DNA from: Halarcobacter sp.
GTDB lineage: Bacteria; Campylobacterota; Campylobacteria; Campylobacterales; Arcobacteraceae
Length of the DNA: 64,000 nt
Assembly: GCA_963676565.1 (NCBI GenBank)
Contig: OY781089.1
Span: 736,001-800,000, forward strand
Reading direction: 5' to 3'
The notes beneath the pieces were generated by a model. It was not told where the DNA came from. It ran no database searches and worked only from the letters and a program-made list of their open reading frames with translations. The translations under genes and the position numbers were made by a program. Below, in pieces: positions 25,389 through 29,709 of the stretch. The first letter of the stretch is position 1; each line of letters opens with the position of its first letter.

Positions 25389-25465
25389 GCGTCTGTGGCT
25401 CAACTGGATAGAGCACTGGGTTTCGGCCCCGGCGGTTGTGAGTTCGAATCTTACCAGGCGTGCCA
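25389..25465 (+). tRNA. tRNA-Arg(UCG)
   Basis: Cloverleaf: GCGTCTG/CAGGCGT acceptor, CTGGG-TTTCGGC-CCCGG anticodon arm, GTTCGAATC T-loop, encoded CCA. Confidence 0.95.
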
Positions 25466-25470
25466 TCTAG

Positions 25471-25520
25471 AAGCTCGATATAATGGACTCTATAGAGTTT
25501 TTATATCGGGCTTTTTTTAT
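25471..25520 (+). terminator. Hairpin after tRNA-Arg
   Basis: AAGCTCGATATAA...TTATATCGGGCTT followed by a T-run. Confidence 0.7.
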
Positions 25521-25598
25521 TTCCGAAAATATGAGTTCTCAATTATTCTTATATAATCTATTTAGTATTTTTATTTGTTACAGTGATTTTTTTAATTA

Positions 25599-25952
25599 GT
25601 GGAGATTCAACCTCTGGGGTGTAGGTTTGACAAATCAATAAAAGCAGGAGAAAATTGGTTTATATTTGTATTCTTAGGTTCAGGAAAAAACTTCCAAGAA
25701 ATTACAATTGAAAATGATATATACAAAAAAATTGAAACATCCTTTGATGAAAACAAAGAGATGATGCCAGAGTTCAAAGATTTTGTTAAAGACTGTAAGA
25801 AGTTATGTAAAGATATACCTTCTTCTGAACTACTTCAAAAATTATATGAAGAAGACAATAGAAATTCAGAGTATTTAGATTTAGAGACTTTTTTCAAAAA
25901 AGGTAGTGAATTAATTCAAAATATAGAAATGATTATTTTGCAGATAGTTTAA
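25599..25952 (+). CDS. Hypothetical protein, possibly a gene fragment
   Basis: 117-aa ORF, GTG start with no clear RBS, no recognised motif. Confidence 0.4.
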   Translation: MEIQPLGCRFDKSIKAGENWFIFVFLGSGKNFQEITIENDIYKKIETSFDENKEMMPEFKDFVKDCKKLCKDIPSSELLQKLYEEDNRNSEYLDLETFFKKGSELIQNIEMIILQIV

Positions 25953-26102
25953 TACAACAAGATATATTGAAAGAAAAAGAGAATATACTTTTATTTCAAT
26001 TGTTATCAATGTATTTAATTTCACTTTATAGAGTGTCAATTAAATAATTATTTAATAACTAAATAGATAAAATCATTATTTGTTAATAGTTTAAGGATAT
26101 AT

Positions 26103-26654
26103 ATGAAATTTATCGAACCTTTACGTTTAATTAAGGCAAATGATTTACCTTTTAAATATTGGCTATTATTTACTATTCTTGCTGGACAATCAGGAATAAT
26201 ATTAAATATAATTATAGGTGTATATAGAGATAATGAAAGTATTTGGTGTATATTAGAAGATAGTTATTTGAATGGTGAGTTCTATACGTATTCAATTGCT
26301 TTACTTTCTTCAATGATTGGGTTAGTATTTCTTGATTTAATTTCTGCAGACAGTCAACATTTTAGACAAATTAAATTAAATACAATAATTATTGGCGCAC
26401 TATTGCTTGGATTTTCTGCTGTTACTTATCCATTTATGTCAAAGGGCGATTTGGAGTGGACACAATTAGTAATATATATACTTTCAATATCTTTAGCAAT
26501 ATATTTTTATGCACTTCTTAAATTAGAAGAAAATCATAAAAAGTTTGAACATTTGTATGATATTGATTATAGTAAAGCAGATGATGATACAGTTGATAAT
26601 ATTAAAAAAAGTGCGGAAACTACTAATACAGATAAAAAAGGAAATAAACTATGA
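26103..26654 (+). CDS. Hypothetical 4-TM membrane protein
   Basis: AAGGA RBS; four hydrophobic segments and a charged C-tail; ATGA overlap with the next gene. Confidence 0.8.
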   Translation: MKFIEPLRLIKANDLPFKYWLLFTILAGQSGIILNIIIGVYRDNESIWCILEDSYLNGEFYTYSIALLSSMIGLVFLDLISADSQHFRQIKLNTIIIGALLLGFSAVTYPFMSKGDLEWTQLVIYILSISLAIYFYALLKLEENHKKFEHLYDIDYSKADDDTVDNIKKSAETTNTDKKGNKL

Positions 26655-27709
26655 TTTTAGATTTTTTAGAAATTAATCAACCAATTGGAACATTTTATTT
26701 ATCTAAAATGTCTGCATCTAATATTAGTAAACTTACACAAGTAAATCAACGTTCAGATGAAAATGGTACAAGTGTCCAAAGAGAAGATTCTGAAAAGAGA
26801 ATAAAAGAAATATCAGCATATAGTAGTGATCCTGATGCTACATTCCCAACTCCAATTATTATTAGTATTTATGATAACTCAAATGTAGAAATAAAAGACG
26901 GTAAAATTGTTGTTCATAATGAAAATGAAAAAATTGGAGAAATTTTAGATGGACAACATAGAATTAGAGGATTAGAAAATTCATTATTTATAAGTGAGTT
27001 TGAAATGCCTATAATTCTTATGTTTAATTTAACTGAAGAAGAAAAAGCTTATGTTTTTTCAATTATTAACAGTAAACAGACTAAAGTTTCAATGTCATTA
27101 ATATATGATTTATTTGCACTTTCTAAAAAAAGAAGTCCTCAAAAAACAATGCATGAAATTGCAAGAACATTTAACAATGATAAGAATTCACCATATTATA
27201 ATAGGTTAAAAATGTTAGGTAAAAAAGAAGAAGGACAAGATTTAGCATCTTTATCTCAAGGTACTTTTGTTAATTATATAATTAAGCTAATTTCTAAAAA
27301 ACCTGATGAAGATATGCGAAAAATAAAAAGAGAAGAACCTCTTACCATTTATAATGATTTACCATTAAGAGAATATTTTATAAATGAAGATGATGAGATA
27401 ATTTATAAAATATTATTGAATTGTTTTAATGGATTATCAAAAGTCTTTATAGAAGAATGGCTTAATCCTGATACTTATATTTTAAGTAAAACTACAGGAT
27501 TTGGTGCAGTTATTAAATCCTTCAATAAATTGTATCTAATAGGGGATGAACAAAATGATTTATCTGAGGAATTCTTTATAAATTGTTTTAGAAAGTTAGA
27601 ACTTAAATTAAAAGAGAATAATCAAAAATTAACTTCGGAATATTTCCCTTCAAGTGAACATACACAGTCTAAGTTGTCAAAACTAATCATTGAATCTGTG
27701 ACTTCATAA
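26651..27709 (+). CDS. DGQHR-domain protein (DndB/ParB-like superfamily)
   Basis: VQRE, FPTPIII, ILDGQHRIRG, FSIINSKQ motifs. Confidence 0.9.
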   Translation: MILDFLEINQPIGTFYLSKMSASNISKLTQVNQRSDENGTSVQREDSEKRIKEISAYSSDPDATFPTPIIISIYDNSNVEIKDGKIVVHNENEKIGEILDGQHRIRGLENSLFISEFEMPIILMFNLTEEEKAYVFSIINSKQTKVSMSLIYDLFALSKKRSPQKTMHEIARTFNNDKNSPYYNRLKMLGKKEEGQDLASLSQGTFVNYIIKLISKKPDEDMRKIKREEPLTIYNDLPLREYFINEDDEIIYKILLNCFNGLSKVFIEEWLNPDTYILSKTTGFGAVIKSFNKLYLIGDEQNDLSEEFFINCFRKLELKLKENNQKLTSEYFPSSEHTQSKLSKLIIESVTS

Positions 27710-27820
27710 GTGTTCCAATAATGTTCCAAAATTAACTATAAATAATTGGTTTTTTAGAATTATATAATTTCAAGAAGTCTTTATTTATGGTTATATGTAG
27801 TTATCCTTGGTAAATATATC

Positions 27821-27842
27821 CGAATCCTACCAGGGGTGCCAT
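27821..27842 (+). repeat. Degenerate att-like copy of the tRNA-Arg 3' end
   Basis: 20/22 match to 25445-25466. Confidence 0.8.
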
Positions 27843-27981
27843 TTTATAATTACTTTTAAACTAACTAAAATCAAAACAGAAATTAGATACTATTTAACAA
27901 AAAATTAAGATAAAAAATATATGAATTTAACTCAAAGAATTAAAGAAACAAAACAATTATTAAAAGCAGCGTAAAATAGTC

Positions 27982-28842
27982 ATGGCTAAAAGTGATTGGA
28001 TAGAAGTTGTTGAAATATTTAATACAAAACGTAAATCATATCTTGATGATTTTCTTACTTCAAGTGATAGGTTTTGTCCTAGTTCTAATCATTTAAATAT
28101 TTTTGACAATAATCACAATGCATTTAGTTCTAAGTTACTTAATAAACCAAAGCCGGGTAATTGGATACCACTTTATCAAAGAGAAGAACTATCTGATTAT
28201 TTAGTAGAAAATAATTTAATGCCAATACGATGTGGACAAGGAGAATTCTTTTTTTTCAAAGGAGATATATTTTATAATTTAAATGAACTTATATATTCAA
28301 GTATTGATATTAAAAACTTATCTCAAACAGACAGTTTTGTTCCTTTAACATTGAAGAATTTTCATAAGAATGAAAATGCTTATTTAAATAAGGCATTAGC
28401 AATTGGAATAATTAATGATTTTGTTGATAATGATAATATGACTGTTTTTCAGCAGCAATTATCTTATAGAAGATTATTATATGGACAATTTGGAAAGATT
28501 AAAACAAATTTTGATTTAGAATTCAAAACTAGCTTCGGAATTAAAAAAATAAATAAGGGTTTTCAATTTGAAATAGATTTAGTACTAGAAAATGAAGATG
28601 AAATTATAATTTTTGAAGCTAAACAAGGACTAAAAGCAAGAAAAACACTTGCACTGTTGCAATTATATTATCCATTGATTTATTTAAATATGATTACTAA
28701 TAATAAGAAGAAAATAAGAACTATATTTATTGATATAATTTCACATAAATCTAAAAATGAAGTTTACAAATTAGTCGAATTTAATTTTGAGAATTTTGAG
28801 TTTGATAATTGTAAAGTGATTAAGAGTTGCGAATATAGTTAA
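27982..28842 (+). CDS. PD-(D/E)xK restriction-endonuclease-like protein
   Basis: QFEIDLVLENEDEIIIFEAK and downstream QLYYP motif; no methyltransferase adjacent. Confidence 0.65.
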   Translation: MAKSDWIEVVEIFNTKRKSYLDDFLTSSDRFCPSSNHLNIFDNNHNAFSSKLLNKPKPGNWIPLYQREELSDYLVENNLMPIRCGQGEFFFFKGDIFYNLNELIYSSIDIKNLSQTDSFVPLTLKNFHKNENAYLNKALAIGIINDFVDNDNMTVFQQQLSYRRLLYGQFGKIKTNFDLEFKTSFGIKKINKGFQFEIDLVLENEDEIIIFEAKQGLKARKTLALLQLYYPLIYLNMITNNKKKIRTIFIDIISHKSKNEVYKLVEFNFENFEFDNCKVIKSCEYS

Positions 28843-28998
28843 TTATCAAAATTTTATATTTACAACTTTTGACTTTTTTAAGTCTATTAGAGTCAATTTT
28901 ATTTTTTTAACTATACAAATAACCAATTTAAAGATTCATATATACTTTTAAACAAAAAATAATTCTTAAAATAATAAAATAACTCCAAAGGAATAAGT

Positions 28999-29571
28999 AT
29001 GATTAAATATATAAAATATGGATTTTTGACTCTTATCGTAGGAGTCATATTTAGTGGTTGTGTAGCAAAGCCTAAGATTGCCCTTGAATATAGACCTGCT
29101 TCTGTTTTAGAACTTGAGGGTAAAGTAAGTGTAAATGATTTTGGATATCTTCCAAAAGAAGGTGTAACTCAAAAACAAATACCTAACACAGCATTAGGAG
29201 AAGGGTTATTTCTAGATGACCCCATAGGTGTGTTTTTTGCAAATGCAGTAAGAAGAGAATTTAGACAGTCAGGATTATCTATTAAAACAGGTTCATGCGA
29301 ACTTGATGGAGAGGTAAATGAATTATTAATTGATGATTTAGGATTTACAGTAGATTTAATCACTGATGTTAGATATATTTTATACAACAAAGATAAAAAA
29401 GTATTAATGGACAATACATATAATACAAAGCTTGATGGCTTATCAAAATTTGTGCAAGCATCTGTACTTTTTCAAAATTTAAATAAAATGTTTTCAAAAA
29501 ATATTGAGTCATTTATGAAAGATCCTCTATTTGTTAAATCATTAGAAAAAGAATGTTCAGAAAATAATTAG
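28999..29571 (+). CDS. Hypothetical lipoprotein
   Basis: Signal peptide with FSGC lipobox. Confidence 0.75.
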   Translation: MIKYIKYGFLTLIVGVIFSGCVAKPKIALEYRPASVLELEGKVSVNDFGYLPKEGVTQKQIPNTALGEGLFLDDPIGVFFANAVRREFRQSGLSIKTGSCELDGEVNELLIDDLGFTVDLITDVRYILYNKDKKVLMDNTYNTKLDGLSKFVQASVLFQNLNKMFSKNIESFMKDPLFVKSLEKECSENN

Positions 29572-29709
29572 GAGAGTATTTGAATAATAAGATTAGTCTT
29601 ATTATTCCCCTCTTCAACTCTAGTTTATTAAATTCCCACTTTATTATGTATTTAGAATATATTCTAAAAATAACTAATAAATAATCATTTTTTATAGTAT
29701 AATGAAATC

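Follow-up and report, generated by a model that had tools for sequence, protein, structure and literature searches.

A pair of overlapping genes in the genome of Halarcobacter sp. (assembly GCA_963676565.1) forms a strict, self-contained and horizontally mobile two-gene unit. The pair lies in a 64,000-nt stretch of contig OY781089.1 (positions 736,001 to 800,000 of the forward strand), hereafter the window, to which all coordinates below refer unless a named locus is given. Judged from sequence and genomic context, we regard it with moderate confidence as an undescribed module that most likely defends against phages; it is a candidate defence system in which a known domain, DGQHR, is joined to an undescribed and obligatory membrane partner. 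Its parts are as follows.

26103..26654, forward strand: gene 1, a 183-amino-acid membrane protein with four membrane helices (open reading frame call and AlphaFold model)
26651..27709, forward strand: gene 2, a 352-amino-acid stand-alone DGQHR protein with an N-terminal domain at about residues 9-144 and a helical C-terminal domain at residues 145-352
26633..26654, forward strand: coupling junction, AAAGGAAA, a Shine-Dalgarno-like stretch in the last codons of gene 1 plus an ATGA stop/start overlap

Together the two genes span about 1.65 kb. Their 4-nt ATGA overlap had been claimed in an earlier annotation made from the letters alone (the sequence-only reading), and is borne out by the coordinates of the open reading frames (ORFs) and by the junction itself, which reads ...AAA GGA AAT AAA CTA TGA, where CTATGA contains the ATG of gene 2. 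A scan for promoters and terminators gave 35 promoter-like sites, compared with 30.7 +/- 6.2 in shuffled sequence, and is not informative for DNA so rich in AT.

The pairing was assessed in 91 loci with gene 2-type genes, comprising 7 from genomes, 80 from metagenomes (the best 80 of 225) and 4 from viral contigs, and was counted in the 81 loci in which 650 nt or more precede the DGQHR gene. The sequence-only reading had asked whether homologues stay paired, and they do: a gene 1 homologue lies directly upstream on the same strand in 79 of these 81 loci (hmmsearch, E<=1e-3). Across all 91 loci 85 pairs were detected, 66 of them with a 4-nt overlap and 7 with a 1-nt overlap, the others being separated by 13-15 nt (11 pairs) or 115 nt (one pair). 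One unpaired locus, L013 from an Ignavibacteria genome (4464-6052), has a DGQHR gene frameshifted into four frames and gene 1 in fragments, a joint decay consistent with loss of the pair as a unit; the other, L051, has a truncated DGQHR gene adjoining a resolvase. No third gene is conserved at a fixed position across the 56 clusters of loci obtained at 90% identity. The identities of the two proteins correlate across cassettes (r = 0.87 for 1081 pairs of 47 cassettes; Mantel test, 0/999), with the membrane protein diverging at roughly double the rate (at 40-50% identity between DGQHR proteins, the membrane proteins share 23%).

This DGQHR and membrane protein module is spread sporadically over Campylobacterota, Bacteroidota, Bacillota and Gammaproteobacteria. 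Gene 2 has 1929 relatives at E<=1e-10 in a 90%-clustered protein collection, and its identity to proteins of Flavobacterium, Chryseobacterium, Dysgonomonas, Peribacillus, Paenibacillus, Planococcus, Vibrio and Aeromonas is usually 53-60%. For gene 1, a word-based search returned 3 relatives and a nine-sequence profile 338 representative clusters, all of 110-275 amino acids and none fused to another domain. Any DGQHR protein over the cut-off was found in 12 of 401 Campylobacterota genomes and a gene 1 homologue in 3 of 401 Bacteroidia genomes; the window genome holds one DGQHR gene, and 60 of its relatives yielded four weak DGQHR matches and no orthologue. Viral contigs gave no locus in a single-protein scan and four in an alignment scan. 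The architecture appears to be wider than the sequence family, since distant DGQHR genes are also preceded by membrane ORFs. Three plasmid DGQHR genes, 30-34% identical to gene 2, each have directly upstream an ORF of 157-207 amino acids with 3-4 hydrophobic segments, the best of which scores 7.7 bits against the gene 1 profile (E 2.9e-4 in a three-sequence search) and the other two fall below inclusion, and one distant Campylobacterota pair matches the profile weakly (E 2.4e-5).

Gene 2 passes the TIGR03187 DGQHR model (150.1 bits against a cut-off of 58.85) and, over residues 14-155 only, Pfam DndB PF14072 (50.2 bits against 29.1). The QR, FP, DGQHR and FxxxN motifs that had been read from its translation are all present and are invariant in a 32-sequence alignment (Q43-R44, F65-P66, D100-G-Q-H-R104 and F136...N140); the available text of PMC4619093 lists the QR pair, the DGQHR pentapeptide and the FxxxN motif for the DGQHR-type domain. 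Residues 9-144 have a ParB/Srx nucleotide-binding fold (Foldseek 7bnr_A, E 8.5e-4, prob 1.0), with VIA-align matches to PadC (6ryk; Z 9.5, root-mean-square deviation 2.5, 99 aligned residues), KorB (8qa8; Z 8.0) and sulfiredoxin (Srx; Z 7.1), and weaker ones to SspE and BrxU, while PHROGs gave only a weak ParB-like match for this protein. The nucleoside triphosphate (NTP)-binding fold is therefore shared with ParB, Noc and KorB, but alignments to ParB, KorB and PadC stop near residue 144 and the C-terminal domain is not shared. No fold match to this second domain (residues 145-352) rises above Z 4.7, so that no nuclease or other effector fold is visible in it. A HEPN-like Rx6H motif in gene 2 (R161...H168, both invariant) was dropped as a candidate, having neither fold nor profile support; DndB is said to carry a HEPN domain in the accessible part of PMC3632139. 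As a separate observation, two metagenomic loci (L077, 4001-5392; L078, 2007-3398) encode DGQHR proteins of 463 amino acids whose C-terminus is about 100 amino acids longer than in the rest of the family.

The gene 1 product was modelled by AlphaFold from a 60-sequence alignment (predicted local distance difference test, pLDDT, 91.7; predicted template modelling score, pTM, 0.81). The model has a short N-terminal helix, membrane helices at residues 14-42, 59-81, 88-111 and 119-151, and a charged, acidic cytoplasmic C-terminal helix (156-173) followed by a short tail, in agreement with the four transmembrane segments and charged tail proposed previously. Lysine and arginine number 4 in the N-terminus, 0 in loop 1, 2 in loop 2, 1 in loop 3 and 8 in the C-terminal tail, a distribution that fits the positive-inside rule and suggests an N-in/C-in topology. 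Near-invariant positions (P6, W20, G31, G58, Y61, Q121, Y134 and D177) fall mostly within the membrane helices or at their ends, which is more than a passive anchor would need. The family also conserves a C-terminal tail of the form G-x-G-[N/I/V]-x-[L/I/V], and since its glycines use all four codons (GGA 12, GGT 11, GGG 7, GGC 3), conservation of the tail appears to act at the protein level and not just on the overlapping ribosome-binding site of gene 2. Gene 1 gave nothing over the curated thresholds of Pfam, NCBIfam and PADLOC v2.0.0, nothing in PHROGs, no PADLOC v2.0.0 family even at E<=1, and no Foldseek match in the PDB at E<=0.001. A sequence search of solved structures gave no match under E 0.6. 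The ESM Atlas returned only clusters of 'hypothetical protein', and a wide VIA-align search only generic helical bundles, the best at Z 8.6, below the level that is meaningful for helical proteins.

The closest named relatives of gene 2 belong to DNA-modification systems, and the pair could on that basis be the remnant of a dnd, dpd or ssp cluster. The best full-length model is TIGR04172, 'DNA phosphorothioation-associated DGQHR protein 1' (residues 6-350), followed by DpdB NF041060, and the sole PADLOC match of gene 2 is likewise DpdB (PDLC02811, E 6.8e-17, sub-threshold). One relative, L044 (3378-9024), lies convergent to dndC-dndD-dndE. However, the scores against both models are far under the cut-offs (157.8 against 450 bits for TIGR04172 and 58.2 against 300 for DpdB), L044 is the only dnd-linked case among 55 representative loci, and the pair consists of two intact genes that are constrained at the protein level. 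The host genome is a single contig of 3.34 Mb, 99.97% complete, and a search of all of it for dnd, dpd and ssp genes found no match to DndC, DndE, DpdA or SspD and only 21.6 bits for DndD (cut-off 245.85), extending to the whole genome an absence previously claimed for the window. Because the partner genes are missing from a complete genome, descent from such a cluster is extremely improbable.

Comparison with the individual systems leads to the same separation of gene 2 from its named relatives. It shares with DndB and TIGR04172 the DGQHR/ParB-fold domain and the QR, DGQHR and FxxxN motifs, but its constant partner is a small membrane protein and not DndCDE. TIGR04172 is confined to genomes with a dnd (DPT) system (PMC3226654), whereas the window genome has no dnd genes. 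DpdB is also a stand-alone DGQHR protein of similar length, but the window genome lacks DpdA and none of the 55 representative loci has a dpd gene as a neighbour. A DGQ[Q/H]R motif is carried by the DUF262 ParB-like NTPase of GmrSD-type enzymes, according to the available text of PMC4619093, and gene 2 resembles GmrSD, BrxU and SspE in its related ParB-like NTPase domain, with the weak structural matches to SspE and BrxU noted above; it differs in having no DUF1524/HNH match (Pfam at E<=1; fold search) and in its membrane-protein partner. The claim that the pair fits no named system is upheld by PADLOC, which returned nothing for gene 1 and the sub-threshold DpdB match for gene 2.

The genomic surroundings of the pair point to defence. 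We annotated 170 flanking ORFs lying within 3-4 genes of the pair in the 55 representative loci (150 with Pfam and PADLOC, 20 with Pfam only), and recognised defence genes occur within that distance in at least 22 of the 55, a count made without a matched background. The matches are listed here by type.

AbiH: L011, L019
Abi_C: L033
Pycsar cyclase and PycTM: L012
Shedu SduA: L015
GajA (Gabija): L043
AriB (PARIS): L042
LmuB (Lamassu) and ABC-3C middle component: L055
DndCDE: L044
Type IV enzyme: L075
Type II enzymes and/or methylases: L022, L034, L061, L079, L082, L083, L084, L088, L089, L090
PADLOC candidate systems: L060, L068
Weaker defence matches in five further loci: L013, L030, L036, L041, L081

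Integrases and transposases are frequent around the representative loci, and polysaccharide-synthesis clusters host five of them (L011, L012, L063, L064 and L077). The clearest single case is that of a P2-like prophage, in which the pair occupies the interval between the tail-fibre-assembly and tail-sheath genes; two viral contigs show it, as do 3 of 5426 complete E. coli genomes, the arrangement having been inspected in one of the three. The E. coli copies are 99.7-99.9% identical and encode WP_001530525.1 (hypothetical protein) and WP_001530524.1 (DGQHR protein); a phage collection yielded DGQHR matches of only 27% identity and no DNA match to the E. coli copy. The interval between G and FI of P2, in which the E. 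coli pair lies, we take to be the Z/fun locus. Sites of defence cargo in P2 include the Z/fun locus and the tail genes in the available text of PMC13586616, and that of PMC9122126 analyses only the cos-proximal old/tin hotspot. The pair therefore combines the features by which defence systems are operationally recognised, namely a conserved gene set, a sporadic distribution and a location in defence islands or hotspots, the last judged without a matched background.

The window itself provides a further example of such a location, in a variable slot next to a tRNA gene with the following features.

25389..25465, forward strand: tRNA-Arg (anticodon tcg; ARAGORN), left anchor of the variable slot
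about 25520..29670, no strand: variable cargo slot of about 4.1 kb (blastn of sister loci L133 and L134 against the window)
25599..25952: ORF of 117 amino acids (start codon GTG) lying after the tRNA and before the pair, possibly not a real gene
27819..27841, forward strand: 23-nt copy of the tRNA-Arg 3' end with 3 mismatches, an att-like scar to the right of the pair
27982..28842, forward strand: DUF6997 (PD-(D/E)xK/Cas4-like) protein of 286 amino acids (Pfam PF22518, 81.9 bits)
28999..29571: lipoprotein-like ORF, inside the variable slot and outside the tRNA repeat

The sequence-only reading had placed the pair in an islet bounded by tRNA-Arg repeats. The repeat stands, the last 23 nt of the tRNA recurring at 27819-27841 where none would be expected (0 matches in 100 shuffles), but it does not mark the boundary, the islet of the pair being only part of the variable slot. 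Synteny with both sister genomes is lost at 25517-25523 and regained at 29659-29680 (blastn). The flanks, a conserved GGDEF gene and the tRNA-Arg upstream and a conserved GGDEF-EAL gene downstream, are common to the two closest sister genomes (G014 and G010) at 88-90% identity. Both sister genomes have two tandem tRNA-Arg(tcg) genes (L133, 987-1304; L134, 991-1276) where the window genome has one, and the 23-nt scar, 2.35 kb downstream of tRNA-Arg, is closer to the acceptor end of sister copy 1 than to that of copy 2. At the same slot the sisters carry a DUF6088 gene and an AbiEii nucleotidyltransferase gene (L133, 1421-2996; L134, 1396-2971; Pfam), which by their domain content constitute a predicted AbiE-type abortive-infection/toxin-antitoxin pair. 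Since this cargo differs from that of the window, the tRNA-Arg slot appears to be a hotspot holding different defence-type genes in each species. The G014 slot has three further ORFs, of 347, 262 and 249 amino acids, without an assignment.

The cargo in the window runs in the order 117-amino-acid ORF, gene pair, tRNA 3' scar, DUF6997 gene and lipoprotein-like ORF, with no integrase among the slot genes. The 117-amino-acid ORF has no match in Pfam, PADLOC, NCBIfam or PHROGs. The DUF6997 gene, which lies outside the tRNA repeat and is the sole copy in the genome, encodes a short form of a type II restriction-enzyme family, without the DUF7226 C-terminal domain and without an adjacent methylase, and could be a relic or else a novel short version. 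Its full-length relatives, with the architecture DUF6996-DUF6997-DUF7226, match REase_II in PADLOC and adjoin the pair together with methylases in L079 and L083; the DUF6997 gene is a neighbour of the pair and not a conserved partner.

For the defence role proposed by the sequence-only reading, context thus lends support through the AbiE genes at the sister slot, the P2 accessory locus and the defence genes near at least 22 of 55 representative loci, as counted without a matched background. The same context bears on a role outside defence, in which the pair would be a regulator of mobile elements or of housekeeping functions, acting as a DndB-like repressor or a Noc-like tether between DNA and membrane, with the membrane partner relaying an envelope signal. 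DndB is a transcriptional repressor (PMC4507180, PMC12704722) and Noc couples CTP binding to membrane binding (PMC12704722), as stated in the available portions of these sources, and some loci lie inside polysaccharide gene clusters. Against a regulator of this kind, the distribution is sporadic and the flanks variable, no conserved target operon lies nearby, and the pair occupies both a prophage accessory locus and the slot that holds AbiE in sister genomes. Compared with Noc, any membrane contact of gene 2 would run via a separate integral membrane protein, and the pair is located in mobile and defence contexts. We consider a non-defence role very unlikely.

Methylase genes are a recurrent class of neighbour, and the pair might accordingly be the read-out half of a device resembling restriction-modification that needs a nearby methylase, often of the Dam/GATC type. 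A methylase lies within four genes in about 10 of the 38 informative locus clusters, listed here.

Clusters with a methylase nearby: L013, L022, L025/27, L034/35, L061, L079, L082, L083, L089, L090/91

One D12-class family recurs in six clusters, a Dam or adenine methylase is encoded immediately upstream of two plasmid relatives, and other DGQHR subfamilies of Campylobacterota are directly coupled to D12 or N4/N6 methylases. DndB, SspE and GmrSD, in addition, act with or on modified DNA according to the accessible text of PMC3632139 and PMC4619093. The position of the methylase relative to the pair nevertheless varies from -4 to +4, several of these methylases belong to complete restriction-modification systems, and the clusters that share the recurrent D12 family are not independent, being related sequences from gut metagenomes. 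Most clusters have no methylase, nor do the window slot and the E. coli P2 locus, and we conclude that a methylase is not obligatory for the pair here; the sole D12 match in the window genome is marginal (23.2 bits) and about 420 kb away. Dependence on a methylase is thus improbable for this pair, while a functional link of the wider DGQHR family to DNA modification is possible. A distinct cassette of D12 (Dam-like) methylase, DGQHR protein and a protein of 200-280 amino acids, with gaps of 0-2 nt or an 11-nt overlap, was observed in Campylobacterota (L104, 597-3364; L105, 604-3146; L006) and represents a separate, uncharacterised three-gene unit.

Co-folding of the two proteins with custom alignments, a check proposed with the sequence-only reading, gave a score of 0.56 in each of its three runs, the best of three controls scoring 0.00; the runs share at least 96% of their contacts, with a partner pLDDT of at least 73. 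In calibration, 116 of 157 solved complexes and 2 of 215 mismatched pairs attained the mark, and scores of up to 0.60 that attain it include 18 of the 157 complexes and both of the passing mismatches. The result favours association, weakly at this score, and we take it as modest support because strict pairing gives a strong prior. We infer that the C-terminal tail of gene 1 and the acidic helix preceding it form a docking surface for the DGQHR protein.

For the phage-defence module that we favour, the order of action would run from a DGQHR sensor to a membrane effector, an order that takes up about half of the likelihood we grant to defence. The DGQHR protein would be an NTP-binding and DNA-binding switch, as are DndB, DpdB and ParB, anchored on the cytoplasmic side of the membrane through the C-terminal tail that its four-helix partner extends into the cytoplasm. 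The trigger would be foreign DNA on its way into the cell, or else an abnormal state of nucleotides or of DNA modification, and the NTP-dependent conformational change that follows would pass from the DGQHR protein to the membrane partner, which would then oligomerise or open, collapsing the membrane potential and stopping the infection (abortive infection). Binding of ATP and GTP by a DndB-like protein is described in the available part of a survey of ParB-CTPases (PMC12704722). In a more specific and tentative version, the ParB-fold switch would be permanently docked on the tail, surveying DNA at the inner membrane and turning NTP-dependent engagement into pore opening, and the acidic helix may imitate DNA and so hold the switch in its off state until it is displaced by genuine DNA.

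The order could also be reversed. Kiwa consists of the four-helix membrane protein KwaA encoded upstream of the soluble, DNA-associated KwaB, and is found in defence islands. By analogy, the membrane protein would be a sensor or anchor at the point of phage DNA entry and the DGQHR protein an effector that loads as an NTP-dependent clamp on the incoming DNA or nicks it, stopping replication or transcription with survival of the cell. Kiwa has the same arrangement of a small four-helix membrane protein and, after it, a soluble protein that binds DNA, the fold matches of gene 2 are to a ParB fold that acts as a DNA-loading NTP switch, and the DGQHR protein is far more conserved than its membrane partner (by the identities given above). 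The likeness to Kiwa, as to systems of a sensor plus a membrane effector, is in layout only, however, with no sequence relation to KwaA or KwaB in PADLOC v2.0.0, where gene 1 has no match at E<=1 and gene 2 matches DpdB alone. The C-terminal domain of gene 2 shows no nuclease or effector fold, and the near-invariant residues in or next to the membrane helices of gene 1 exceed the needs of a plain anchor. We regard the reversed order as rather unlikely, though a more serious contender than the methylase-dependent device.

Several observations weigh against a phage-defence module with a membrane effector, as favoured here. Searches with the predicted structures found no effector fold in either protein, with only generic helical bundles for gene 1 and nothing above Z 4.7 for the C-terminal domain of gene 2, and the co-folding support appears weak by the calibration of the tool itself. 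The DGQHR protein is unusually conserved, at about 55% identity across phyla, a degree of conservation more in keeping with an enzyme or with a protein that binds a universal ligand than with a rapidly evolving sensor of phages. Three of the loci in polysaccharide-synthesis clusters (L063, L064 and L077) have no nearby defence gene, and the defence-neighbour count of at least 22 of 55 has, besides no matched background, a base of many short contigs, with 38 of the 56 clusters flanked by genes on both sides. The search starting from gene 1 (3 of 401 Bacteroidia genomes, none in viral contigs) is small for judging whether gene 1 occurs without a DGQHR partner, and no member of the family has a phenotype on record.

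No published description of the pair was found in the literature text searched, which comprised main texts and partly titles and abstracts, with supplementary tables outside this scope. Literature mentioning DGQHR included none on a membrane partner; that combining 'DndB-like' with phage, represented by the available text of the ParB-CTPase survey (PMC12704722), describes no membrane pair, and papers on ParB-like proteins and transmembrane defence include none evidently on the pair, by title and abstract. The accessions WP_001530525.1 and WP_001530524.1 do not occur in any paper text searched.

To our knowledge, the DGQHR and DndB-like proteins described so far all serve as accessories of DNA-modification systems (Dnd, Dpd), in a biochemical capacity that is little understood. 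Our analysis indicates that one branch of DGQHR proteins is instead a free-standing module with a single, strictly conserved and unannotated membrane partner, and that this pair occupies recognised defence slots, including the accessory locus among the tail genes of a P2 prophage in E. coli. If the tentative version with a permanently docked switch is correct, the pair would represent a new class of phage defence and the first defence role for a ParB-type switch that can do without a DNA-modification or nuclease partner. Being small and directly clonable, the pair offers a natural system for the role of a ParB-fold NTP switch coupled to a membrane protein.

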